Positions 50 to 21,031 are shown, numbered from the stretch's first letter. The stretch is DNA of 21,031 bases from Acidobacteriota bacterium (GCA_043740165.1 JAYUCR010000397.1:1-21031), one strand, 5' to 3'. The notes: generated from the sequence alone by a model not told the origin. Numbers and translations: made by a program.

Positions 50-3000
50 TCATCGAGCTCCGCCGGGCCCCGGTGACTGCTCCCGTCCGCCAGGATCGAC
101 GGCCTTCTCGCCGCTCAGCGTGTTCAGCCGCTGCTTCAGTTCCGGCTGGTCCGGATTCAATCTGAGGGATTCGCGAAAAGCGCGGACAGCCTCGTCGGGC
201 ATCCCGAGCTTGAGGTCGATCTCCCCGAGGAGCTCCTGAAGTCCGGCCTCGCTCGGAAGGCGCTGGATCGCCGTGCGTATCAGATCCAGCGCCTCGCGCT
301 CACGCGATTGATCGAGGAGCCATCTTCCCAGGTTGAGGTACGCGGGGACGTAGAGCGGATTGATCTGTAATGCGCGGCGCATTTCGCTCTCCCCTTCTTT
401 CGCGTTCCCGCGTTTCAACAGGGCCAGCCCCAGGTTGTGGTGCACGTCGGCATACCCCGGATCCAGGGCAGCCGCCTTGCGGTAGGCGGCGATTTCGTCC
501 TCGGGGCGGCCGAGCCGTCCGAAAACCGCCCCGAGATTGTTGAACGCGGAGGCGTAGGAGGGATCGATGACCGTAGCGCGCTCGAGCTCCTGGCGCGCCT
601 CCTCCAGCCGGCCACCCAGATAGAGCAGCCCTCCGAAATTGGTGCGGACGGCGGCATTGTCCGGGTCGCGGCGAAGGGCATTGCGGAACTGCGTCTCGGC
701 GGCCTTCATGTCGCCGCGATCCTCGTAAACCAGGGCGAGGTTGCTGTAGGAGCCCGCGAAACTGGCGTCGGCGGCGATGGCCCGATGAAACGCCTCGATC
801 GCCGGTTCGATTTGTTTCCGGTTCTTCAGGATGACGCCGATGTTGTTGTAGGCCTCGGCGTAGTCCGGGTCGATCGCGACCACCTTCCGAAATTGCTCCA
901 GCGCCTCGTCGGTCCGCCCCAGCCGGTCAAAGAGGATGCCGAGGCTGTTGCGGGCGTCGGCGAAATTGGGCTCGTATTCCAGCGCGCGCCGGAAGTGCGT
1001 CTCCGCCCCGGCCGTGTCTCCCTGATCGAGCGCCATGTTGCCGAGCAGATTCTCAGCCTCCTTGGAACGGGGCTGCCGCTTCATGTGCTCATCGAGGGCC
1101 CGTGTCGCGGCGGCGTAGTCCTTCTTCTTGTAGTACGCGCGCGCCATGTTCAGGCGGGCGATCGTCAGGTCCTCGGAAGCCGCGACGGCCTTTTCGAACT
1201 CCCCCAGGGCGTCATCGTAGCGGCCCTGGCCGAGCAGGATGGTGCCGCGGTTATTGTGCGTGTTCGCCGTCTCCCCCGCCAGGTACCCGAGAGATCGGAG
1301 TTTTTCGATCCGCTCCGCGTCACCGGCAGCGTCGGGGCTCGCGCCCGACGGCGCCGGGGGGACGCCGCCCGCCGAGGAGCTGGAGCCGGGAGGCATTTCG
1401 GGTGGCGCCGCCTCCGGCCCCGCGGCGACCCTGGCCGGCGCCCCGGTCGCCGCCGGGTTGGCGGGGTTCTCCCATGATGGAATGTAGGCTTCGGGATGCT
1501 CCTTCAGGAATTCCGGGGCGAACGCCTCGGTGATCGGCCGCCCGTCCATGTCCTCGCCCACGGGCAAGCCGTACAGGCGCAACAGGGTGGGGGTGATGTC
1601 GAGCACGGAGGCCTCATCCAGCTCGACCCCGCGCCGGAATTCCGGGCCGTGCAGCACGAGAATCCCGTACTTACGATGCCAGTCCGCCGCGGCCCCGTAC
1701 CCGATGCGCGACTCGGTGAGCGGACGATTTTCGCCGGTCCTGAATCCATGGTCGGAGAGCACCATCACCGTGGTCGGATGGATCCCTTCCAGAAGTCGAC
1801 CCAATGCGGCGTCGGCCTGGACGTAGTATTCATCCACGACCCTCCCGAAGCGCTGCCGGGATTCGGCGTCGATGCCCTGCAGCGGCGGCGGCGCATAGGG
1901 CATGAACAGGTGCGCCGCCGTGTCGGTGCCCTCGAAATAGACCGCGGTGAAGTCGGTGTCATAGCGCGCCTCGAGCGCCAGTGCCACCCTCTCGTAGGTC
2001 CTGCCCGAGGCCAGAAGCGTCTTGAAGTTCTCGACCAGCCGGCTCTGATTTTCCGGCAGCGAGCTCGGATCCGGAGGCATCCGCATGAAGGGCGTCAGAT
2101 CCTGCATCAGGATGTTTTCCGGCGTCACGGTCAGCGATGTCACCAGCGCGTCCGCCTCGGGGGGCGAAACCTTGCCTTCGCGCGCCCCGCCGTCGACGGC
2201 GCGCGCGCCGAACAGCTGGTACGCGACCCGGTCGGAGACCACGAACCCGTTCACCTGCTCGGCGGGATAAGTCGCCCACCACCCGACGATTCCGACCCTC
2301 ACCCCGCGCTCTCCGAGCATGTTCCAGATCGCCTTGACGCGGCGCTGCGTCGCGCTGACCGGGACGCGCTCCCCTTCCCGCTCGGTGTTGGCCACGAAGT
2401 CCAGAATGCCGTGGCGCGCCGGCACCACTCCCGTCGCGATGCTGGTCCAGATGACCGGCGAAAGCATCGGATTGATGCTGCGCAGCCGGGCCCGAACCCC
2501 CTCGTGGACGAGCCGGGCAAGATGCGGCATCCGGCCGCTGCTCATCAACGGGTCGATGATGTTCCAGTCGGCGCCGTCCAGGCCGACGAGGAGCACCTTT
2601 CCCAGGGCGCCCCCGCGCGTCGCCGTCAGGGGGGTCCCGTTGTCGGCCCGGATGCGGACCCCCGGAACCTCGCACGACAGGAGGACCAGCCCCGCCTCCC
2701 GGAAGCGATCCCCCAGGGTGCGGCTGAGCGCCGCCTGGAGCTCCTCGGTGTGCGTCCCGGAGATATCCGCATAGCTGGCCGCCGCCAGGGCGCCACGGAT
2801 CGCCTCCAGGACCCATCGGCTGATGGCGTCGCCTTCCAGGCGCGGTCCGAGGGTCCGGTGCACCTCGATCAGCCGCTCCGGATCGACGCGGTAGCGCAGG
2901 GTCACCGAGGTTTCAACTTCGGTCCCTTCGCGCGTGGCGAGCGGCCGGCGGGAGCCGCCCAGGGAAATATCGAGGGTCGCTGAACGGACGGCGTAGAGGC

Positions 3001-3199
3001 TGATCCGGAACAGCCCCGGCGGGGCGAGGTGCCATCCCTCGGGCACGATGCGCGGCGAGATGAGGCCGAGCCGTGAATCCAGAACGGCAGCCCGGCCGTC
3101 GTCTTCGGTGCGGCGCAGGCCGGCTCCGAGCCAGACGCATAAAAACAGCAGGAGGACGCCGGCGGCCATACGGCGTCGTCTCAGCACCTCCGGTGTCAT
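50..3199 (-). CDS. Membrane-anchored multidomain protein. It has an N-terminal signal/TM segment, a type I phosphodiesterase/alkaline-phosphatase-superfamily domain and a C-terminal array of TPR repeats.
   Basis: 1049-aa ORF. The N-terminus MTPEVLRRRRMAAGVLLLFLCVWLGAG looks like a signal/anchor. The stretch VLLVGLDGADWNIIDPL...VLSDHGF resembles Phosphodiest/AlkP-family metal-site motifs. The C-terminal half consists of repeated 34-aa TPR-like units (AxxYxxLGxxxxxxGxxxEAxxxxxxAL pattern, many copies). Stop TGA at 52-50. Confidence 0.75.
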   Translation of the reverse strand: MTPEVLRRRRMAAGVLLLFLCVWLGAGLRRTEDDGRAAVLDSRLGLISPRIVPEGWHLAPPGLFRISLYAVRSATLDISLGGSRRPLATREGTEVETSVTLRYRVDPERLIEVHRTLGPRLEGDAISRWVLEAIRGALAAASYADISGTHTEELQAALSRTLGDRFREAGLVLLSCEVPGVRIRADNGTPLTATRGGALGKVLLVGLDGADWNIIDPLMSSGRMPHLARLVHEGVRARLRSINPMLSPVIWTSIATGVVPARHGILDFVANTEREGERVPVSATQRRVKAIWNMLGERGVRVGIVGWWATYPAEQVNGFVVSDRVAYQLFGARAVDGGAREGKVSPPEADALVTSLTVTPENILMQDLTPFMRMPPDPSSLPENQSRLVENFKTLLASGRTYERVALALEARYDTDFTAVYFEGTDTAAHLFMPYAPPPLQGIDAESRQRFGRVVDEYYVQADAALGRLLEGIHPTTVMVLSDHGFRTGENRPLTESRIGYGAAADWHRKYGILVLHGPEFRRGVELDEASVLDITPTLLRLYGLPVGEDMDGRPITEAFAPEFLKEHPEAYIPSWENPANPAATGAPARVAAGPEAAPPEMPPGSSSSAGGVPPAPSGASPDAAGDAERIEKLRSLGYLAGETANTHNNRGTILLGQGRYDDALGEFEKAVAASEDLTIARLNMARAYYKKKDYAAATRALDEHMKRQPRSKEAENLLGNMALDQGDTAGAETHFRRALEYEPNFADARNSLGILFDRLGRTDEALEQFRKVVAIDPDYAEAYNNIGVILKNRKQIEPAIEAFHRAIAADASFAGSYSNLALVYEDRGDMKAAETQFRNALRRDPDNAAVRTNFGGLLYLGGRLEEARQELERATVIDPSYASAFNNLGAVFGRLGRPEDEIAAYRKAAALDPGYADVHHNLGLALLKRGNAKEGESEMRRALQINPLYVPAYLNLGRWLLDQSREREALDLIRTAIQRLPSEAGLQELLGEIDLKLGMPDEAVRAFRESLRLNPDQPELKQRLNTLSGEKAVDPGGREQSPGPGGAR

Positions 3200-12421: not shown

Positions 12422-14956
12422 CTACTGCGCGACGATATTCAGCAGCTTTCCCGGCAGGTAGATGATCTTGCGAATCGACTTGCCCGCGAGGTGCGCCTCG
12501 ACCCGCTGGTCGCCGCGCGCCAGGGCCACCGCCTCGGATTCGCCCGTCGACGCCGGCACGCGCAGGTGACCGCGGAGCCGCCCGTTGACCTGGACCACGA
12601 CCTCGACCAGGTCCTCGCGCATCCAGGCGGGATCGGCGGCCGGCCAGGGCTGCGCCATCGCCTCCCCCTTCCCCCCGAGGCCCTCCCAGATCGCCTCCGA
12701 GATGTGCGGTGCCAGCGGCTGCAGCAGGAGCGCCATGCTCATGCCGGCTTCCTTGATGTAGGGATCGTCCCCCGGCGCGGCGTCGCGGGCGAAGTCCTGG
12801 GTGGCGTTCAGGAGCTCCATCACCGAGGAGACCGGGGTGTTGAGGTGCAGCCGCTTCTCGATGTCGGAGGTCACGCGTTCGATCGTCTGATGGACCTTGC
12901 GCCGCAGGGCCGCCCGGCGCGCATCGTCCGCCCCGTCGAGCCCGGAGGGCAGGGAGGCCGCCGCGAGCGCCGCCGCGCGCGGCGCCAGCAGCCGCCACAC
13001 CTTCTCGAGGAACCGGAAGCACCCCTCGACCCCTTTCTCGTTCCACTCCAGATCCTTCTCCGGCGGCGCGGCGAACAGGGTGAACAGGCGCGTCGTGTCG
13101 GCGCCGTAGCGCCGGATCATCTCGTCAGGGTCGACGACGTTCCCCTTCGACTTCGACATCGCCGTCCCCCCCTTCAGCACCATCCCCTGGCAGAGGAGGC
13201 GGGTCACCGGCTCGTCGACGCGGACCAGGCCCAGGTCGCGCAGCACCTTGGTGAAGAAGCGGCAATAAATAAGATGAAGCGTCGCGTGGGTGATCCCTCC
13301 GACATACAGATCGATGGGGAACCAGGAAGCGACGATCTCGGGGTCGAACGGCGCCTGGTCGTTGCGCGGATCGCAGTACCGGTAGAAGTACCAGGCGGAG
13401 TCGAAGAAAGTGTCCATGGTATCGGTCTCGCGACGCGCCGCGCTGCCGCAGCGCGGACAGGTCGCCCGCACGAACGTCTCGGAGAGGGCCAGGGGCGATC
13501 CGCCCTGCCCGGTGAGCGGCACGTCCTCCGGGAGCAGCACCGGCAGGTCCCTGTCGGGCACCGGAACCACACCACAGCGCTCGCAGTAGACCACCGGGAT
13601 CGGGGTCCCCCAGTAACGCTGCCGCGAGATCCCCCAGTCGAGCAGGCGGAACTGCACCGTGGTGCGGGCGAACCCGCCCTCCTCGCCGGCCCGCGCCATC
13701 GCCGCGCGCGCTTCGGCCGAAGACAGGCCGGTGAAGCGCCCCGAATCGACGAGCACGCCGTCGGCGGTCATCGCCGCGAGGGGCGCTCCCCGCTCCGCCG
13801 GCGACGGAGAGGACTCCGGCGCTGGGGCAGCGGGCGCCTGCTCGCGGATCACGAACCGGATCGGCAGGCCGTAGCGCCGGGCGAATTCGAAATCGCGCTC
13901 GTCGTGCGCCGGGACCGCCATGATGGCGCCGGTGCCGTACCCCATCAGCACGAAGTTCCCGGCGTATACGGGTAAGCGCCCGCCGCTGCAGGGATTCCGG
14001 ACGACAAGCCCACTGTCGACCCCTTCCTTCTCCGCCAGATCGGCGCCGGGCCTGGTGACATCGCGCGCCGCGCCGACCCGCCGCCGGAATTCCTCCAGAC
14101 GAATCCCGGCGGGGCTCGCTGGCTCGACGCGCCGCAACACCGGGTGCTCCGGGGCGACCACGCAGAAGGTCGCGCCGAAGATGGTGTCGAGACGGGTGGT
14201 GAAAATCTCCAGCGCCTCCCCGGTCTCCGCGGACCCGTCGAGAATCGGGAAGCGCACCACGGCCCCAACGCTTCGGCCAATCCAGTTCTGCTGCATCAGC
14301 CGGACCTTCTCCGGCCAGCCCGGCAGCCGATCCAGGCCGGCGAGCAACTCCTCCGAGTAGGCGGAGATGCGCAGGAACCACTGCTCCAGCTCGCGGCGCG
14401 ACACGACCGAATCGCAGCGCCAGCAGCGCCCCGCCTCGACCTGCTCGTTCGCCAGGACGGTCTGGCAGGAGTCGCACCAGTTCACGTCCCGCCGGCTGCG
14501 GTAGGCCAGACCCCGCTCCAGCATCCGGAGAAAAAACCACTGGTTCCAGCGGTAGTAGTCGGGCCGGTGGGCGGCGATCTCGCGCGTCCAATCGTAGGAG
14601 AAGCCGAGCCGGCGGAGCTGTTCCCCCATGACGGCGATGTTCTCGTTGGTCCACTTCGCGGGAGGAATGCCGCGCTGAATGGCGGCGTTCTCCGCCGGCA
14701 TCCCGAACGAATCCCACCCCATCGGATGGAGCACCTGGTCGCCGCGCATCCGGCGGAACCGGGCCACCGCGTCCCCGATGGCGTAGTTGCGCACGTGCCC
14801 CATGTGCAGCCGTCCCGATGGATACGGCAGCATCTCGAGGCAATAGAACTTCCGCCCGGCGGCGCGCGCCGGCGCGCGAAACCCCCCGGCCGCGCGCCAG
14901 CGCTCCTGCCAGGCGCGCTCGATGGCGTCGAACTGATCGCGGTAATCGCCCTGCAT
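12422..14956 (-). CDS. leuS: Leucyl-tRNA synthetase
   Basis: Class I aaRS HMGH motif (PYPSGRLHMGHVRNY), KMSKS motif (VLKGGTAMSKSKGNVVDP) and a CxxC Zn cluster. The likely start is the ATG at 14956 (MQGDYRDQF..., matching the usual LeuS N-terminus). The ORF track offers an in-frame extension to 15034. Confidence 0.9.
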   Translation of the reverse strand: MQGDYRDQFDAIERAWQERWRAAGGFRAPARAAGRKFYCLEMLPYPSGRLHMGHVRNYAIGDAVARFRRMRGDQVLHPMGWDSFGMPAENAAIQRGIPPAKWTNENIAVMGEQLRRLGFSYDWTREIAAHRPDYYRWNQWFFLRMLERGLAYRSRRDVNWCDSCQTVLANEQVEAGRCWRCDSVVSRRELEQWFLRISAYSEELLAGLDRLPGWPEKVRLMQQNWIGRSVGAVVRFPILDGSAETGEALEIFTTRLDTIFGATFCVVAPEHPVLRRVEPASPAGIRLEEFRRRVGAARDVTRPGADLAEKEGVDSGLVVRNPCSGGRLPVYAGNFVLMGYGTGAIMAVPAHDERDFEFARRYGLPIRFVIREQAPAAPAPESSPSPAERGAPLAAMTADGVLVDSGRFTGLSSAEARAAMARAGEEGGFARTTVQFRLLDWGISRQRYWGTPIPVVYCERCGVVPVPDRDLPVLLPEDVPLTGQGGSPLALSETFVRATCPRCGSAARRETDTMDTFFDSAWYFYRYCDPRNDQAPFDPEIVASWFPIDLYVGGITHATLHLIYCRFFTKVLRDLGLVRVDEPVTRLLCQGMVLKGGTAMSKSKGNVVDPDEMIRRYGADTTRLFTLFAAPPEKDLEWNEKGVEGCFRFLEKVWRLLAPRAAALAAASLPSGLDGADDARRAALRRKVHQTIERVTSDIEKRLHLNTPVSSVMELLNATQDFARDAAPGDDPYIKEAGMSMALLLQPLAPHISEAIWEGLGGKGEAMAQPWPAADPAWMREDLVEVVVQVNGRLRGHLRVPASTGESEAVALARGDQRVEAHLAGKSIRKIIYLPGKLLNIVAQ

Positions 14957-15030
14957 AGAGGCGGATTCTAGGAGCCTGTCCGAGTATTCGCAAGGGCCGC
15001 GTTCGCCGCGCCGCGGCGAACCCGGAGGGC

Positions 15031-15285: not shown

Positions 15286-16428
15286 GTGATGCAGGAAGCG
15301 ACGAGGCCGGTAGACATAGAGGAAGACCCCGGACCGTCACAGGGGCTCGACCTCATTGGCCTGCTCGCGGCGCCGGGGCCGATGGGGGCCGCGCTCCGGT
15401 CGGCGATGCGCGATCTCCCCCCCTCCGCGGTCCCGGGACTCGTGGAGCGGCTGGTCTACCACCGCATCGACGGCCTGGCCTGGCGCGCCATCGCCGGCCT
15501 TCCGGCGGACGAGATCGACCCCTGGCTCCGCGCCACGCTGCGCCGCCGGCACCAGCAGCGCAGCGCCGCGGTCCTGGCGCAGGGACTGGGGCTCGCCGAG
15601 GTGCTCGATCACCTGACGCGGGCCGGCGTGCCGGTCGCGGTGACGCGCGGGCTGCGGGTCATCGAGTGGATCTACCGTGACACGGGGGCGAGGCCGTTCG
15701 AGGATCACGATCTCCTGGTCCGGCCCGCCGACGAGCCGCTGGCGTGCGCCGTCCTGCAGCGCCTGGGGTACGAGGAACGCGCCCCCCGCCTTTTCCGCCG
15801 CACCACCATCACGCTGGACCTGCACACCGACCCGCTCGGAGCGCGCCGCCGCCCGACGCGCGCGCAGCTCTTCCCGATCGACGTCGAGGCGCTGTTCCGT
15901 GACGCCAGCCCCGGCTGGATCGCCGGCGGCCCGGCGATGATCCTGGCCCCCGAGGACGAGATCCTGCTGCTCGCGCTGCACGTCGTGAAACATTCCTTCG
16001 ATCGCCTGATCCGCACCGCCGACCTGGCGCACCTGGTCGCCGTGCACGGCAACGCCATCTGCTGGGAAAGGGTTCGGGAGCGCGCCGAGGAGGCGCGCGC
16101 CACGCGGCTCCTCGGCCTGGCGTTTGGCGCCGCGACGCCGTTCGGCATCACGGTGCCGGCGGCGGTGCGCCTGCCGGAGCCTTTCGCCGGCCTCGAAGGG
16201 CTGCTGCTCGATCGCGTCCGCGCCTTCCGTCCCCTCCCCTACTGCGGAGAGGTGCTGATGGCGATGGCCGCTCCGCGCTTCCTCGATCGCCTGCGCTACG
16301 TCCTCGATGCGCTCGTCCCGGCGGGCGAGGCGCCGGCGGGCGGCTGGTCGGCGGCGGAGATCCCCCGCCGCAGCGTGATTCTGCTCGACGGCGCCGCGCG
16401 CCGGATGCGTGAAAGGAGACGGGCGTGA
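15286..16428 (+). CDS. Uncharacterised nucleotidyltransferase-family protein (PF14907/NTP_transf_5-like; Pol-beta superfamily)
   Basis: 380-aa ORF. The block AGVPVAVTRGLRVIEWIYRDTGARPFEDHDLLVRPADEPLACAVLQRLGY matches the KG..-Y.dpg.R..sDiDlLV...d...a...L...Gy signature of this family as I remember it. The start is GTG 15286 or ATG 15289 after a G-rich SD. The stop TGA overlaps the next start as GTGA. Confidence 0.6.
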   Translation: MMQEATRPVDIEEDPGPSQGLDLIGLLAAPGPMGAALRSAMRDLPPSAVPGLVERLVYHRIDGLAWRAIAGLPADEIDPWLRATLRRRHQQRSAAVLAQGLGLAEVLDHLTRAGVPVAVTRGLRVIEWIYRDTGARPFEDHDLLVRPADEPLACAVLQRLGYEERAPRLFRRTTITLDLHTDPLGARRRPTRAQLFPIDVEALFRDASPGWIAGGPAMILAPEDEILLLALHVVKHSFDRLIRTADLAHLVAVHGNAICWERVRERAEEARATRLLGLAFGAATPFGITVPAAVRLPEPFAGLEGLLLDRVRAFRPLPYCGEVLMAMAAPRFLDRLRYVLDALVPAGEAPAGGWSAAEIPRRSVILLDGAARRMRERRRA

Positions 16429-16730
16429 TCGAACCTGGAACCGCACGTTACATCCCCTCCCCCGACGTGGTGACGCGCAACATCGCCGGCGAGCACCTGC
16501 TGGTGCCGGTGCGCACCGGTGTCGCGCAGATGGACTACCTGTACACCGCCGACGAGGTGGGGAGCGTCATCTTCTCCCTGCTCGACGGGCAGCGCGACGC
16601 GACCGCCATCGGCCGCCATGTCGCGGAGCTGTTCGAGGTCGACGCGGCGCAGGCCACGGCCGACGTGGCGGCCTTCCTCCAGGAGCTGGAACAGGCCGGA
16701 CTGGTCCGCCTGGCCGGGGAGGACCGTTGA
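16425..16730 (+). CDS. PqqD-family protein, a standalone RiPP precursor recognition element (RRE)
   Basis: 101 aa. The pattern VTRNIAGEHLLVPVRTG..YLYTADEVGSVIFSLLDGQRDATAIGRHVAELFEVDAAQATADVAAFLQELEQAGLV is the canonical PqqD/RRE pattern. The GTG start has AAGGAG 6 nt upstream and overlaps the upstream stop as GTGA. Confidence 0.85.
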   Translation: MIEPGTARYIPSPDVVTRNIAGEHLLVPVRTGVAQMDYLYTADEVGSVIFSLLDGQRDATAIGRHVAELFEVDAAQATADVAAFLQELEQAGLVRLAGEDR

Positions 16731-18031
16731 GCGCCTGCTCCCCGGTCACGTACCAGGAGTTCGGCAAGAGCGTGATGCAGGCATGCGCCGGGGCACGCGT
16801 GCCGCTGTCCGGCTCGTTCGAGCTGACCTTCAAGTGCAACCTGCGCTGCGTGCACTGCTACATCCCGGACTTCTCCGGGCGCGACGAGATGACCACCTCC
16901 GAGGTGCAGCGGATCCTGAGCGAGGCGGCCGATGAGGGATGCCTCTGGATGCTGCTCACCGGCGGCGAGGTCCTGTCGCGCGCCGACTTCCGCGAGATCT
17001 ACCTGCACGCCAAGCGCCTGGGGCTGCTGCTGACCGTGTTCAGCAACGGCACCCTCCTGGACGAACGGATCGCCGATCTGCTGGCCGAGTACCCGCCGCG
17101 GGGTATCGAGATCACCCTCTATGGGATGTCGGACGCGACGTATCTGCGCACCACCGGCTCACCGGGGCGTTTCACGCGGGTCAAGCGGGCGGTCGAGCTG
17201 CTGGCGGAGCGCCGCATCGACCTCACCCTGAAGGCGATCGCGATGGAGGAGCTGCGCGACGAGATCCCGGTCATGCAGGCCTGGGCGGCGTCGATGGGGA
17301 TCCGCTTCCGGTACGACGGCACCATTCACGGCCGGCTCGACGGCTCGCTCAGCCCCACGGCGGCGCGTTCCACCCCGGAGCGGCTGGTGCAGCACGACAT
17401 CAACGACCCGCGGCGGCGCGCCGACTGGATGACCTTCTACCGCGACTACGTCAAGCCGGCGCGCAAGAGCGAGATGCTGATGTCGTGCGGCGCCGGGGTG
17501 CAGAGCTTCCACGTCGACCCCAAGGGGACCCTGCTGTCGTGCGAGGCGCTCAACCTCGACGCCTACGATCTGCGCCGCGGCACGTTCCGGGAAGGCTGGT
17601 ACGGCATCGTCGGCCGCGTGCGCGAGCGCCGCGCGGCGGCCCACAACGTCTGCGCCGGCTGCGAGATCAAAGCCCTCTGCGATCGCTGCCCGGCCACGGC
17701 GCTGCTCGAGACCGGCAGCCCCGACGGCTGGATCCCCTACTACTGCGAAGTGACCCACAGGCGGGCCTCCTTCCTGGAGGCCGAGCTGGGAAACACGGAA
17801 GCCGCGGCGCGCTACATGGCCCACGCCGAGAAGGTGGCCGGCGGGTGGACTCCCGAAGGGGTCATCCTGCCGCGCGCCTCGGCGCTGCGCGCGAGCGCCG
17901 CCCCGGCGGGCGGCTGCGCGTCCGGCGGATGCACCTCGGGCGGGTGCGGCAAGCCTGCCGCGGCCGCCGCCAGTCCCCAGCCGTTGCAGATCGATTTGAA
18001 CCGCAGCAACACGATGGAGAGACAGCGATGA
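16727..18031 (+). CDS. Radical SAM / SPASM-domain peptide maturase (PqqE/sactipeptide/ranthipeptide-synthase-like)
   Basis: The CNLRCVHC (CxxxCxxC) AdoMet cluster is near the N-terminus and a GGE-like motif (LLTGGEVL) follows. A full SPASM signature is present: CGAGVQSFHVDPKGTLLSC is CX12GX4C, then CAGCEIKALCDRC, then a final YYCEV Cys. The start is uncertain. TTG 16727 overlaps the PqqD stop as TTGA with GGAGG 4 nt upstream. GTG 16772 and ATG 16775 are alternatives. The first ~100 codons of the ORF-track entry (16409-) are out-of-frame overlap with the PqqD gene and are not real. Confidence 0.88.
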   Translation: MSACSPVTYQEFGKSVMQACAGARVPLSGSFELTFKCNLRCVHCYIPDFSGRDEMTTSEVQRILSEAADEGCLWMLLTGGEVLSRADFREIYLHAKRLGLLLTVFSNGTLLDERIADLLAEYPPRGIEITLYGMSDATYLRTTGSPGRFTRVKRAVELLAERRIDLTLKAIAMEELRDEIPVMQAWAASMGIRFRYDGTIHGRLDGSLSPTAARSTPERLVQHDINDPRRRADWMTFYRDYVKPARKSEMLMSCGAGVQSFHVDPKGTLLSCEALNLDAYDLRRGTFREGWYGIVGRVRERRAAAHNVCAGCEIKALCDRCPATALLETGSPDGWIPYYCEVTHRRASFLEAELGNTEAAARYMAHAEKVAGGWTPEGVILPRASALRASAAPAGGCASGGCTSGGCGKPAAAAASPQPLQIDLNRSNTMERQR

Positions 18032-18219
18032 CACGCAGCCCCGAGAAGCCCGGCGCGCCGGCGCGCCGGTCGTACCACCCGCCGCAGCTGCAGCGGGTCA
18101 GCCTGGTCCCCGACGAAGCCGTTCTCGCCTCCTGCAAGACCGCGACCGTGCAGGGGCCGCTGGGCGCCTCGGCAAAATGCACCGGCACCCCTTCACTCTG
18201 CTCGCACGATGGCTCCTAA
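18028..18219 (+). CDS. Candidate RiPP precursor peptide, 63 aa: MTRSPEKPGAPARRSYHPPQLQRVSLVPDEAVLASCKTATVQGPLGASAKCTGTPSLCSHDGS
   Basis: It is not listed separately in the ORF track because it is the 3-prime end of the long frame-1 ORF 16939-18219. ATG 18028 overlaps the rSAM stop as ATGA and has a GGAGAG SD 6 nt upstream. The stop TAA at 18217 is overlapped by the kinase start. GC3 is high. The product has three Cys in its C-terminal third and a C-terminal Ser. Confidence 0.6.
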   Translation: MTRSPEKPGAPARRSYHPPQLQRVSLVPDEAVLASCKTATVQGPLGASAKCTGTPSLCSHDGS

Positions 18220-19132
18220 CACACCCCGTCCGTTGATCCTGGAGATCGCCGGCATCGGCCTCTCCGTGCGGCCGGCCGAGCCGGGGATCGATCTGGTCAC
18301 CGACGCCGCCCACGAGCCGTTTCTGGCGGAAGGGATCGGCGACGACTGCGCCTCGATCGTCCTGGCGCCGGTGGCCTCCACCCGGCCGCCGCGCACCAAG
18401 GGCCGGACGATCTTCGACACCGGCTGCGTCTGGCGTCTGGAGGAGAGCGGCGACGGGCACCTCCTGACGCTGCGCTCGCCGGTGTTCGGCGCCGACCCGT
18501 ATCTCGCGGTGGAATTCGACGCCCAGTATTCCCGCGGCCAGGGGGAAACGCTCGACGGCGGCCCTCATCTGCTGGGAGCGACCATGCACCCTTTCGTCTA
18601 TCCGTTCGACGAGGTGGTCTTCCTGGCCCGCCTGGCGCGCGGCCGCGGCGTGCTGGTGCATGCCTGCGGTCTCACCTATCGCGGGCGCGGCATCCTGCTG
18701 CTCGGCACCTCGGGCGCCGGCAAGAGCACCTCGGCGCGCCTCTGGTCCGAGCGCCCCGCCGCCCGCGTCCTCTCGGACGATCGCATCGTCATCCGCCGCG
18801 ACGACGAGGGTTATCGCATCTTCGGGACCCCCTGGCACGGGGACGCCGGGCTCGAGTCGCCCGGCTCGGCGCCGCTGTGCGCCGTCTTCATCCTCGAGCA
18901 GGCGCCGCGCAATCGCGTCGTCGAGATGCCTCCCTCGCAGGCGGTGGCCCAGATGATGGTGCGCGCCTTTCCCGCCATGTGGGATCAGGGAGGCCTGGAG
19001 TTCGCGGTGAAGTTTCTGTCGCAGATGACCGAGCGGGTCCCGGTGCGGCGGCTGCAGTTCCTGCCCGAAGCCTCGGCGGTCGATTGCGTGCTCGGGGCGA
19101 TCGATGGGGGGCTCGATGCCGAAGGGGCCTGA
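18209..19132 (+). CDS. HprK-like serine kinase (HPr kinase/phosphorylase C-terminal-domain fold; RiPP peptide kinase-like)
   Basis: 307 aa. The block VLVHACGLTYRGRGILLLGTSGAGKSTSARLWSERPAARVLSDDRIVI matches the HprK C-domain P-loop region (VHG..V...G.GVLI.G.SG.GKS..AL.L...G..LVSDD.V.I). The ATG overlaps the precursor gene end by 11 nt. Confidence 0.8.
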   Translation: MAPNTPRPLILEIAGIGLSVRPAEPGIDLVTDAAHEPFLAEGIGDDCASIVLAPVASTRPPRTKGRTIFDTGCVWRLEESGDGHLLTLRSPVFGADPYLAVEFDAQYSRGQGETLDGGPHLLGATMHPFVYPFDEVVFLARLARGRGVLVHACGLTYRGRGILLLGTSGAGKSTSARLWSERPAARVLSDDRIVIRRDDEGYRIFGTPWHGDAGLESPGSAPLCAVFILEQAPRNRVVEMPPSQAVAQMMVRAFPAMWDQGGLEFAVKFLSQMTERVPVRRLQFLPEASAVDCVLGAIDGGLDAEGA

Positions 19133-19136
19133 AGAA

Positions 19137-21031
19137 GTGAACGGGGGCTCTCCCGGGTCGAGCCCGGCCCCGCCGGTCCTCCTGGCGGAGCGCCAGGGAG
19201 TGGTGTTCGTCGCCACGTCACAAAGCGTCGACGGCCTGCGCGTCCCGCGGCGTTACTGGGGGACCGACATGGGTGTCGTGGCGATCCCGGCGCACGAGGA
19301 GGAGGTGCGGGCCTGCGAGCTGCTCCCCCCTTCGGATGCCGGCGCCTGGCCGCGCGCCCTGCCGCGCCCCGACCTGCTCTCTCCGGTTCTGTCGCGTCTC
19401 CTCAGCGTCGAGCACATGGAGATGAGTCTCTATCCGGGGCGCGACGGCCTGAAAGCGATGCTGATCGCCCCGGACGGGCAGCGCCTGCCGTTCCCGATCG
19501 CCCCCAAGGATGCGCTCGGCCTCCTGGCCGCGGTCTTCCACCATGCGCCGCGCGGTGTCGTCGCCCTGAACGCGAGCCGCCCCGGGCGGCTGCTCCTCGC
19601 CGTCCAGCCGGCCGCCCGGCCGCACGAGTACCGCGTGCGGCTCGCCGGCGCCGTGGCCACACCGAAGCCGGGCAGCCTGCCCGAGATTGGCGCCTCGATG
19701 TCGCTCCTCGAAATCCTGAACGAATCGCTCGATCGTCCCTCGGGATTGATGCTGGTCGCCGGGGGCAGCTCCTCGGGGCGCAGCACGACCCTGGACCTTC
19801 TGGCCGGATCGCTCCTGGCGCGCGGCCGGAGCGGCGGCCGGATCGGCCCGCGGCGCGAGACCGCGAACCCGAACCTCCCCTGGCTCGCCGACGCCGTCAC
19901 CGACTGGCCGTTTCCGGAGAGCCTCAAGGAGGCGGCGCCCGACTTCGTCATGATGGAGCGGCTGGAAGGACTGCGGCACCTGCTGCTCGCCGCCCGCCTC
20001 GCCGGGACGGGGACGCTGGTGCTGGCCGGCGCGCCCCCCGCCGAGCCGCAGGCGCTGGTGCGCCGCGTGGCGCGCGAGCTCGAGGCCGGCGCCGGACCCG
20101 AGGTGCCGGTGATGGTGCTGGCGCAGTCCCTGCTGCGCACCGTCTGCCGCGGATGCACCACGTGGACGGCGATCCCGGCGGCGCGCGCGTTGCGCCTCGG
20201 GTTCCACCGCTGGGATCTGGAGGAGATGGAGCGCCGCGGCGGGCTCGCCGTCCCGGCCCGCAAAGGCTGCCCCACCTGTGCCGGGACCGGCATCGCCGGG
20301 CTCACGGGGGTGTTCAGCTATGCCGGGTCGGACGGCCTCTCGAGCGCGCTGCCGACGCTGCGCGAAGAAGGCTGGCGCAAGGTTGTCGAAGGCATCGCCG
20401 ACGTCGATGACGTCGCGGCCCTGCCGGGTGGGCATCACGCCATGCGTTCCCTGCGCGAGATCGCCGTGCTGGCCGGCACGACGCCGATGGCGCGCCATGA
20501 GCCCGACGGCGTCGCCACCGCGGCGTCGGCCCGTCCGGTCGCCGCGCGACCCGCCGCGGCCCCGCCGGTCAAGTCCGGCGCCGTCGCGCGCGGCTCCTCC
20601 TCCGCCGACGTCGACATCCTCGTGGCGCTGTTGCGCGCCGCGCGCGCCGGGCAGCCGCCGCAGCCGGAGCGCATGGCCGAGCTGGCGCGCGGCGTCGCCG
20701 GCCGGGCGATGCAGGGCGAGCTCGACACCCAGCTCCAGCCGCCGCCCGCCGGCTACCACATGGGGCGCCGGGCGGTGAACACGGCGGTCCTGGCGGTGCG
20801 GATCGTGGCGGCGCTGGGTCAGACCGAGGACGCTCCGGCGACGGCCACGCTGGCGCTGCTCCATGACATCGGGCTGCTCGAGGCGGGTGTCGATCCGGGG
20901 GCCGAATCGGGCCCTCAACTGAGCGAAGCCGCTCTCGATCCCCAGGGGGCACGGATGCGCCCCGCCACCATGCTGCGCGCGCTTGGCCTTCCCGACGCCG
21001 AGCTGGCGGCCCGGATCGCCGACGCGCAGAC
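19137..21031 (+). CDS. Partial (3-prime end runs off the window) GspE/PilB-type secretion-ATPase-fold protein with degenerate catalytic motifs, fused to a C-terminal HD domain
   Basis: I translated this manually (frame 0, no stop to the window end, over 630 codons), and it is absent from the ORF track. It aligns by eye to GspE/EpsE. LMLVAGGSSSGRSTTL matches LVTGPTGSGKSTTL, with the Walker A Lys replaced by Arg. APDFVMMERLEGL matches DPDVVMVGEIRDL. The His box is lost (TGTLVLAGAPPA for TGHLVMSTLHTN). The tetracysteine Zn motif is kept (VCRGC ... GCPTCAGTGIAGLTGVF). A C-terminal HD signature follows (YHMGRRAVNTAVLAVRIVAALG ... LALLHDIGLL). The start is GTG 19137 (AAGGGG 9 nt upstream) or an in-frame ATG at 19104/19116. 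Confidence 0.7.
   Translation, partial: MNGGSPGSSPAPPVLLAERQGVVFVATSQSVDGLRVPRRYWGTDMGVVAIPAHEEEVRACELLPPSDAGAWPRALPRPDLLSPVLSRLLSVEHMEMSLYPGRDGLKAMLIAPDGQRLPFPIAPKDALGLLAAVFHHAPRGVVALNASRPGRLLLAVQPAARPHEYRVRLAGAVATPKPGSLPEIGASMSLLEILNESLDRPSGLMLVAGGSSSGRSTTLDLLAGSLLARGRSGGRIGPRRETANPNLPWLADAVTDWPFPESLKEAAPDFVMMERLEGLRHLLLAARLAGTGTLVLAGAPPAEPQALVRRVARELEAGAGPEVPVMVLAQSLLRTVCRGCTTWTAIPAARALRLGFHRWDLEEMERRGGLAVPARKGCPTCAGTGIAGLTGVFSYAGSDGLSSALPTLREEGWRKVVEGIADVDDVAALPGGHHAMRSLREIAVLAGTTPMARHEPDGVATAASARPVAARPAAAPPVKSGAVARGSSSADVDILVALLRAARAGQPPQPERMAELARGVAGRAMQGELDTQLQPPPAGYHMGRRAVNTAVLAVRIVAALGQTEDAPATATLALLHDIGLLEAGVDPGAESGPQLSEAALDPQGARMRPATMLRALGLPDAELAARIADAQ

Follow-up and report, generated by a model that had tools for sequence, protein, structure and literature searches.

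A PilB-like protein with degenerate ATPase and HD-GYP domains, encoded in exopolysaccharide loci of Acidobacteriota: a candidate signalling pseudoenzyme

Background

What role can be played by a protein that has the fold of a secretion ATPase without the residues for ATP hydrolysis, carries the remnant of an HD-GYP domain behind it, and is encoded directly in front of the export genes of an exopolysaccharide (EPS) operon? The question is raised by a gene that runs off the 3' end of a 21,031-nucleotide stretch of DNA (G+C ~70%) from an Acidobacteriota bacterium (GCA_043740165.1 JAYUCR010000397.1:1-21031), the whole of which we call the window. An earlier reading of this DNA (below, the original prediction) had described the product as a degenerate GspE/PilB-like ATPase fused to an HD domain and had left its function among several options. 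Based on our comparative analysis, we believe that the protein acts in signalling without being a catalyst and regulates the export of EPS, and we give this hypothesis slightly better than even chances. Its more specific elements, such as a hexameric ring or a direct partnership with Wzc, are considerably less certain than this general reading.

The gene and its family

The translation of the frame in the window is 100% identical to residues 1-638 of P0001, a protein of 781 amino acids called on a 68-kb metagenome contig (L001) and again on a second contig from a different sample (L002). Indeed the gene continues past the window end, as had been supposed. Its start was called at 19116 on L001, with an alternative in-frame ATG at 19104; its third codon positions have a G+C of 0.90, and the G+C pattern over codon positions is that of a real gene.

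A protein search returned relatives in 87 clusters at 90% identity, mostly of 720-795 amino acids, the rest being shorter and partly fragments. Named relatives are called "hypothetical protein", except for one "HD domain-containing protein", and they come mostly from metagenome-assembled genomes (MAGs) of Acidobacteriota or Candidatus Polarisedimenticolia. The motif counts given below refer to an alignment of 58 relatives (A1), and conservation values are mean column identities. From its N-terminus, P0001 consists of a beta-rich region, an N2-like domain, an ATPase fold, a disordered linker, a degenerate HD-GYP domain and a small barrel. The AlphaFold model has a mean pLDDT (predicted local distance difference test) of 84.7 and a pTM (predicted template modelling score) of 0.59, so the arrangement of the domains relative to each other is uncertain.

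Family loci with the same synteny are also carried by MAGs labelled Verrucomicrobiia, Dongiaceae, Binatia and Cryosericum (L009, L019, L022, L023). They are 53-72% identical to the Acidobacteriota ones over the best aligned segment, and the inconsistent labels most likely come from binning or labelling errors.

An ATPase fold without the residues for hydrolysis

By its fold the protein is a member of the PilT-like ATPase superfamily and not an equivalog of PilB or GspE, the NCBIfam cut-offs for which are missed widely: it scores 38.5-39.3 bits against a cut-off of 675.65 for PilB (TIGR02538) and 34-34.9 bits against 630.25 for GspE (TIGR02533). Pfam T2SSE (PF00437) is matched by a single sequence weakly, at 26.6-27.3 bits with a cut-off of 24.9. 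With a family profile and with structure the relationship is nevertheless beyond doubt. A phmmer search with the single sequence finds Thermus PilF at E=1.4e-7 and Vibrio EpsE at E=4.5e-6, whereas the family profile reaches E=5e-24 for PilF and E=5.5e-19 for GspE. In a Foldseek comparison the AlphaFold model matches PilF/PilB at E=2e-18 over ~390-400 alignment columns; since the targets have ~380 residues, both the N2 and the C-terminal domain are covered. The MshEN domain, which the original prediction had proposed to look for, gave no Pfam match at E<=1 in the protein or in the relatives scanned, and the modelled N-terminus is beta-rich.

PilT-like ATPases keep the Walker A and Walker B motifs, a catalytic Glu and two arginine fingers; the Glu of their Asp box binds Mg, and the His of their His box contacts the gamma-phosphate (McCallum et al., 10.1101/082750). 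GspE/EpsE and PilF/PilB (PDB 1p9w, 5oiu, 5tsh) have a Lys in Walker A, a Glu in the Asp box, the catalytic Glu and two His in the His box, all of which are replaced throughout our family. Walker A here follows the pattern SGGPxSGR[ST]TT, where the Lys position is taken by Arg in 56 of the 58 relatives and by Cys in 2, and by Lys in none. The Asp box reads GGRIGPR, its conserved acidic residue gone; the His box reads SGxLVLAGAPAAD and has lost its conserved His. In Walker B (DFVLV[E/D]) the acidic residue is present in 58/58, and the position of the catalytic Glu holds R, H, S, Q or P.

The replacement of the Walker A Lys in the window cannot be explained by a frameshift or sequencing error, an alternative that the original prediction had allowed for, by which the catalytic residues would be restored. 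The codon, CGC, is two changes away from Lys, and the relatives that share the Arg come from independent metagenomes. The description of the protein as a GspE/PilB-like pseudo-ATPase, with Walker A Lys changed to Arg, the His box lost and the zinc tetracysteine kept, is supported.

Other features, among them the Walker B acidic residue and the probable arginine fingers, are strongly conserved. C344, C347, C385 and C388 are invariant, and within the P-loop G221 is found in 57/58, R222 in 56/58 and T225 in 56/58. The P-loop belongs to the best conserved stretches, with a mean of 0.82 against 0.69 for the whole ATPase domain. As the residues for hydrolysis are lost across the family while the P-loop is conserved, ATP hydrolysis by this protein is in our opinion very unlikely, and the phosphate-binding site looks selected for, not abandoned.

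A remnant of an HD-GYP domain and a conserved barrel

The Ala/Pro-rich linker that follows the ATPase fold was correctly recognized by the original prediction; it is predicted to be disordered (pLDDT <50 at residues 466-492) and its column conservation is 0.30. Behind it lies a domain that is visible in the window in part only, because the window ends 143 residues short of the C-terminus. We describe it with the HD-GYP motif definitions and roles given by Galperin & Chou (10.1101/2021.11.05.467447). The first metal-binding His is present in 53/58 relatives and is replaced by Arg552 in the window copy; of the HD dyad, H583 is kept in 54/58 and D584 in 49/58. The family has lost the Lys of HDxGK (now HDxGL), KPG, H250 and RxxK (there is no RxY[K/R]), the HHE motif is reduced to an occasional single His, the last metal-binding Asp is now Ser, Ala or Cys, and the GYP loop is deleted throughout. 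With a mean conservation of 0.58, this is the least conserved folded part of the protein.

Profile searches give a mixed picture of this domain. Pfam HD_5 has no match in the five full-length family members scanned or in the fragment P0084, Pfam HD reaches E=0.26 in P0001 and is above the cut-off in P0019, P0055 and P0084, and a family-profile search of the HD part against the PDB returned noise only (YfbR, E=0.65). Its kinship with HD-GYP domains became apparent by two other routes, namely a bridge through distant fusion proteins, described in the next section, and structure comparison, in which the closest match of the HD part is Bd1817 (PDB 3tm8). Judging from its motifs, we regard the C-terminal domain as a dead HD-GYP remnant. 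The suggestion that the HD domain could be of HD-GYP type was therefore right as to the fold, whereas the degeneration of the domain had not been seen.

The protein ends with an SH3/Tudor-like barrel (residues 708-770, beyond the window), which is its most conserved part (0.82) and contains many of the invariant columns of the alignment. Some HD-GYP proteins that stand alone, a subfamily to which P0118 and P0122 belong, have the same tail. The string RxxxR ... ELSSGD made us consider a PilZ domain for this barrel, an assignment that we rejected: PilZ is a beta-barrel with RxxxR and [D/N]xSxxG ~20-30 residues apart, and the barrel does not conform to this.

A distant family of fusions and the course of the decay

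The original prediction called the fusion of an ATPase fold to an HD domain unusual. Rare it certainly is: an exhaustive profile search found 29 representatives at E<=1e-30 among 1.84 billion cluster representatives, several of which are fragments. It is not unique, however, for the search also revealed a second, distant family with a better-preserved HD-GYP domain (P0100, P0102, P0104, P0108 and P0101; E 1e-53 to 3e-37), which we use as an outgroup. Its members P0100, P0102, P0104 and P0108 (672-748 amino acids, named "HD-GYP domain-containing protein" by JGI) have the same order of T2SSE-like domain, HD-GYP domain and barrel, without the extra N-terminal region of our family. They match T2SSE (~1e-23 for the three best) and HD_5 (3e-25 for P0100), and the C-terminal part of P0100 matches two HD-GYP enzymes of solved structure, PA4781 (E=1.4e-16) and PmGH (E=1.2e-11). 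The hits of this family are from metagenomes only.

The outgroup shares the change of Walker A Lys to Arg. Unlike our family, it keeps the Walker B Glu (PEI), and its HD-GYP domain keeps H, HD, H, xHE, GFP and Asp. Its GYP motif is GFP, GEP or further degraded, while the corresponding loop is deleted in our family. Since the outgroup combines a nearly intact HD-GYP domain and a Walker B Glu with a Walker A that already has Arg, the two catalytic domains decayed stepwise, and the ancestor probably sensed or hydrolysed cyclic di-GMP (c-di-GMP).

It may be asked whether the protein is nonetheless an enzyme, either a slow or non-canonical NTPase or an HD-type phosphohydrolase whose substrate carries a phosphate or nucleotidyl group, for instance Wzc phosphotyrosine or the peptide of the upstream cassette, the latter enzyme being a version of the phosphatase for a phospho or nucleotidyl tag that the original prediction had offered. 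The P-loop, the Walker B acidic residue and probable arginine fingers are kept, as is the HD dyad in 49-54 of the 58 relatives; genes for an HprK-like kinase and a nucleotidyltransferase lie just upstream, and a Wzb-type phosphatase was not seen in the locus. Nevertheless, the protein lacks four distinct elements on which catalysis by PilT-like ATPases depends. In the HD-GYP part the HHE motif, the last Asp, H250 and the GYP loop are gone, in the window copy the first His as well, so at most 2-3 of ~8 metal ligands are left, along with none of the c-di-GMP motifs; the domain is moreover the one that the family conserves least, and its nearest structure, Bd1817, is itself non-canonical. We consider a residual enzyme quite unlikely, and the tag-removing phosphatase finds no support in what remains of the metal site.

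An exopolysaccharide operon and a CheY-like receiver

On contig L001 the order of genes is NTP_transf_5, PqqD, radical SAM, a 63-codon open reading frame (ORF), a ScmC/HprK-like gene, the gene in question, Wza-like, Wzc-like and Wzy_C, followed by a membrane protein of 530 amino acids that weakly resembles flippases, three glycosyltransferases and a methyltransferase. In terms of Pfam, the Wza-like protein is Poly_export/SLBB, the Wzc-like one Wzz/GNVR/AAA_31, and the flippase-like one a weak Polysacc_synt_3. The gene overlaps its neighbours on both sides: the ScmC-like gene ends (19132) past its start, and the start of the Wza-like gene overlaps its stop by 4 nt.

We surveyed this context in 20 loci from a species-representative genome collection, by tblastn with the L001 proteins; L003 and L018 are the same contig. 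Wza lies directly downstream in 19 of the 20 (all but L018) or, counting L001 as well, in 20 of 21 distinct family loci, with a partial Wza match in L015. Wzc follows Wza wherever the contig extends, except in L015, and Wzy_C, flippase-like and glycosyltransferase genes come next as far as the contigs go. The outgroup shows the same arrangement in 3/3 fusion loci: P0100, P0102 and P0108 (L024, L025, L026) are directly upstream of Wza-Wzc, and then come Wzy_C, flippase and glycosyltransferase genes where the contig reaches that far.

A CheY-like single-domain receiver (REC) is the second conserved neighbour. Its gene immediately precedes ours in 12 listed loci, of which 11 are distinct. In L004, L005, L007, L008, L011, L012, L015 and L017 it stands between ScmC and our gene; it is also found upstream in the deep branches L003/L018 and L027 and in the outgroup locus L026 (P0108). 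It matches Pfam Response_reg at E=1.9e-32, and the copies are 42-100% identical to each other, from which we take them to be orthologous. The REC gene is missing in the window (L001) and in L006, L009, L010, L013, L014, L020 and L023, and there is no copy elsewhere in the window. A neighbour-joining tree suggests that REC was lost at least once, in the section to which the window protein belongs. The conserved core thus consists of REC, the pseudo-PilB/HD-GYP protein and a Wzx/Wzy-type EPS operon.

Such tight synteny with Wza-Wzc-Wzy, along with the translational coupling to the Wza-like gene, would also fit a purely static or mechanical subunit, a PilB-like ring under Wzc/Wzy/Wzx that serves as a platform or assembly chaperone and carries no signal; the conserved zinc site and the combination of N2 and C-terminal domain, typical of ring-forming secretion ATPases, agree with it as well. 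On the contrary, the conserved upstream REC and the HD-GYP-derived domain point to signalling, and a conserved P-loop with Arg suggests a behaviour that depends on a ligand. GspE/PilB systems have GspF/PilC and GspL/PilM partners; neither these nor pseudopilins turned up in the gene calls for the 22-kb locus and for related loci, and the lack of a GspF/PilC-like platform protein in the 22-kb locus speaks against a static ring. We also know of no Wzx/Wzy pathway that requires a PilB-like component, which counts further against a subunit of this kind. On balance we find the structural role unlikely.

The Wza-like gene just past the window (L001 12343-13758, + strand) encodes an outer-membrane protein for polysaccharide export that has, ahead of Poly_export/SLBB, an N-terminal Peptidase_S24-like domain (GGSMEPT; Pfam E=5e-7). 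In its counterpart in the outgroup loci, FG-GAP repeats take the place of this domain.

The upstream peptide cassette

In the window lineage, the genes immediately before ours form a peptide-modification cassette, which raises the question of whether the protein belongs to a peptide pathway instead. The cassette is directly upstream in 16 loci, all in the main clade (L010 has no radical SAM match, and L015 has NTP_transf_5 and ScmC only). It is absent in the deep-branch relatives P0081 (L003) and P0089 (L027), and there is none upstream of the outgroup proteins P0100 and P0108; on the contig of P0102 the gene is preceded by just 91 nt. As it is missing in the deep branches and in these outgroup loci, the cassette is a later acquisition than the REC, pseudo-PilB/HD-GYP and EPS core.

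A protein of such a pathway, which would resemble those of ribosomally synthesized and post-translationally modified peptides (RiPPs), might be an export scaffold, chaperone or sensor of the modified 63-aa peptide, with the EPS operon merely adjacent. The cassette's position in the 16 loci and the overlap of the ScmC gene with the start of ours in the window speak for this, as does the presence of a cassette with every family member that lacks the receiver. But P0081, P0089, P0100 and P0108 manage without a cassette, P0100 and P0108 keeping the EPS operon, and where REC is present it sits between ScmC and our gene. Further, in L015 the protein goes with NTP_transf_5 and ScmC only, and it has no transmembrane or transporter domain. 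We hold membership in a peptide pathway to be rather improbable; the scaffold for peptide export in particular, another option of the original prediction, does not agree with the conserved neighbours being REC and the Wza/Wzc/Wzy operon.

The 63-aa ORF looks like the precursor peptide of a PqqD/radical SAM/HprK-like/nucleotidyltransferase cassette. It is kept in 16 cassette loci, with the invariant core "...LVPDEAVLASCK....GP.G...KC.G.P..CSH.[AG]S*". The peptide contains three Cys and ends in Ser, and nothing in NCBIfam matches it. In L015 (2872-7495), which branches early in the cassette clade, the order is NTP_transf_5, ScmC, REC and our gene, without PqqD, radical SAM and peptide; from this locus it seems that the kinase/nucleotidyltransferase pair and the radical SAM/peptide part may be separable modules. 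In the literature we found nothing relevant on an HprK-related kinase, nucleotidyltransferase or PqqD together with EPS, and nothing on SynChlorMet.

The hypothesis

We propose that the protein is a cytoplasmic signalling pseudoenzyme dedicated to a Wzx/Wzy-type EPS pathway. Its ATPase module would still bind a nucleotide or another phosphate-bearing ligand, probably at the subunit interfaces of a PilB-like oligomer, and binding without turnover would make it a conformational switch, a hard-wired form of the hydrolysis-independent role of Myxococcus PilB in EPS regulation. The HD-GYP remnant would now probably have a structural role or one in interaction. Regulators that are pseudoenzymes descended from c-di-GMP enzymes are well known. 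Besides the ligand at the P-loop, the ancestral input would have been the phosphorylation state of the upstream CheY-like receiver, in the window lineage perhaps replaced by input from the adjacent peptide/kinase cassette, and the output would be control of the downstream Wza/Wzc/Wzy/Wzx machinery through protein-protein contacts. Among the functions that the original prediction had listed, that of sensing a nucleotide or second messenger is still the most plausible.

Several points weigh against this hypothesis. The mechanism is derived from sequence and gene order, and all family sequences come from uncultured MAGs. Gene order speaks of co-inheritance, not of the direction or nature of control, and a structural role in the export machine fits it equally. 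As the window lineage has no REC, the proposed REC input cannot apply to the window copy. In deep-branch L003, the EPS genes are absent downstream. Finally, the arginine fingers are tentative: in a MAFFT alignment with canonical T2SSE proteins R158 (50/58) and R175 (53/58) fall at the two Arg-finger positions, and the N2 domains aligned there are very divergent.

A more daring version can be imagined, in which the hydrolysis-dead PilB-derived ring acts as a clutch gated by a ligand: it would dock to the Wzc/Wzy/Wzx platform, and its Arg P-loop or its barrel would read the phosphorylated or nucleotidylated C-terminal Ser of the 63-aa peptide, the ancestral input being a phosphorylated CheY-type receiver. 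Such a scheme is a long shot. If it were true, a modified peptide would directly gate polysaccharide export in the receiver-less window lineage, and the locus would hold an EPS control module of an undescribed kind.

Relation to known systems

The closest functional precedent is found in Myxococcus xanthus, where PilB with a Walker A mutation, although deficient as an ATPase, sustains EPS production in the absence of pili; the authors consider PilB a signalling protein and its signalling form not the hydrolysing one (PMC5544727). Like our protein, M. xanthus PilB has a PilB/GspE-type N2 and ATPase fold, a tetracysteine zinc site and a link to Wzx/Wzy-type EPS. Unlike it, M. xanthus PilB is a genuine motor ATPase that has a c-di-GMP-binding MshEN N-terminus and works in a pilus machine. 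Our protein has no MshEN domain and is by prediction naturally hydrolysis-dead; it carries a domain derived from HD-GYP as well as a barrel, and its gene lies within an EPS locus, with no pilus genes near.

Inactive HD-GYP proteins have been described as well, among them HnoD, ECA3548 and RpfG; such proteins reportedly regulate via protein contacts, including the control of EPS (Galperin & Chou, 10.1101/2021.11.05.467447). Bd1817 of Bdellovibrio was deposited as a non-canonical 'HDG"Y"P' protein. Compared with these, the decay in our family is more extreme, with the loss of HHE, KPG, RxxK and the last Asp on top of the deletion of the GYP loop; in addition, its receiver is a separate gene and not fused, and a PilB-like module stands in front. 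The census of HD-GYP architectures in the same work mentions no T2SSE, GspE, PilB or ATPase partner, and our literature searches met with no account of PilB/GspE homologues that are naturally hydrolysis-dead and either fused to HD-GYP or located in EPS loci. In our view, familiar domains have here been combined in a new way and placed in a new context; by their motifs they fall outside the catalytic definitions of both PilT-like ATPases and HD-GYP enzymes.

If the hypothesis is correct, the family would be a natural, fixed, signalling-only PilB, paired with REC in many relatives and wired into a Wzx/Wzy EPS operon. It would offer a system for asking what a secretion-ATPase ring does without ATP turnover and how Wzc-type EPS machines are regulated from the cytoplasm. 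Comparison of the outgroup with the family lets the stepwise decay of two catalytic domains be followed, and the question bears on the formation of biofilms and aggregates in uncultured Polarisedimenticolia-type Acidobacteriota. At present the members are annotated either as hypothetical or, misleadingly, as "HD-GYP phosphodiesterase" or "T2SSE".

Table 1. Features of the gene, its product and its surroundings. Positions are those of the window, except for the receiver gene, which is given on contig L004.
Feature	Position	Strand	Remarks
Gene for the pseudo-PilB/HD-GYP protein	19116..21031	+	First 638/781 codons; remaining 430 nt past window end
N-terminal beta-rich region and N2-like domain, residues 20-182	19173..19661	+	Foldseek, MAFFT
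PilB/GspE-type C-terminal ATPase-fold domain, residues 186-440	19671..20435	+	Catalytically degenerate
Walker A P-loop, GGSSSGRST	19761..19787	+	Arg222 codon CGC at 19779-19781
Asp-box remnant, GGRIGPRRE	19833..19859	+	Mg-coordinating Glu and ED pair lost; alignment to PilF, column counts
Walker B region, DFVMMER	19941..19961	+	Acidic residue after hydrophobic strand, no catalytic Glu
His-box remnant, TGTLVLAGAPP	20007..20039	+	Both His gone
First CxxC of tetracysteine Zn site, CRGC (C344, C347)	20145..20156	+	58/58
Second CxxC of tetracysteine Zn site, CPTC (C385, C388)	20268..20279	+	58/58
Ala/Pro-rich disordered linker, residues 455-494	20478..20597	+	pLDDT, conservation
Start of degenerate HD-GYP-fold domain, residues 495-638 of 495-706	20598..21031	+	
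R552 in place of first metal His	20769-20771	+	
HD dyad	20862-20867	+	
Peptide-modification cassette	15289..18219	+	Upstream of the gene
NTP_transf_5	15289-16428	+	
PqqD	16425-16730	+	
Radical SAM	16727-18031	+	
63-aa Cys-rich peptide ORF	18028-18219	+	
ScmC/HprK-like kinase homologue	18209..19132	+	Overlaps start of the gene; operon context, outside conserved core
REC gene, L004	9613-10050	+	

Further observations

The change of Walker A Lys to Arg, along with degraded Asp and His boxes, also occurs in several of the nearest unfused T2SSE-like neighbours (P0133, P0150, P0187, P0189 and P0193; L028-L033), which suggests a wider, undescribed set of putatively hydrolysis-dead PilB-like proteins. 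P0189 is composed of MshEN and T2SSE; P0189 and P0193 are encoded by orphan genes away from pilus, secretion and EPS genes, and the contigs of P0150 and P0133 are too short for gene context.

The operon is 99.94% identical between L001 and L002 from window position ~14955-15021 onwards, in the intergenic region of leuS and NTP_transf_5, and the flanks upstream of this are unrelated (leuS in one, an EamA transporter in the other). The break adjoins a perfect 10+10 palindrome, GTTCGCCGCG/CGCGGCGAAC, at 15001-15021. It may mark the boundary of a rearrangement or of an island, or else reflect a chimeric assembly.

Elsewhere in the window, at 50-3199 on the minus strand, a protein of 1049 amino acids is encoded that combines an SPFH/Band 7 and a type I phosphodiesterase/nucleotide pyrophosphatase domain with a long array of TPRs. 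The architecture is unusual, and the gene is unrelated to the operon discussed here.

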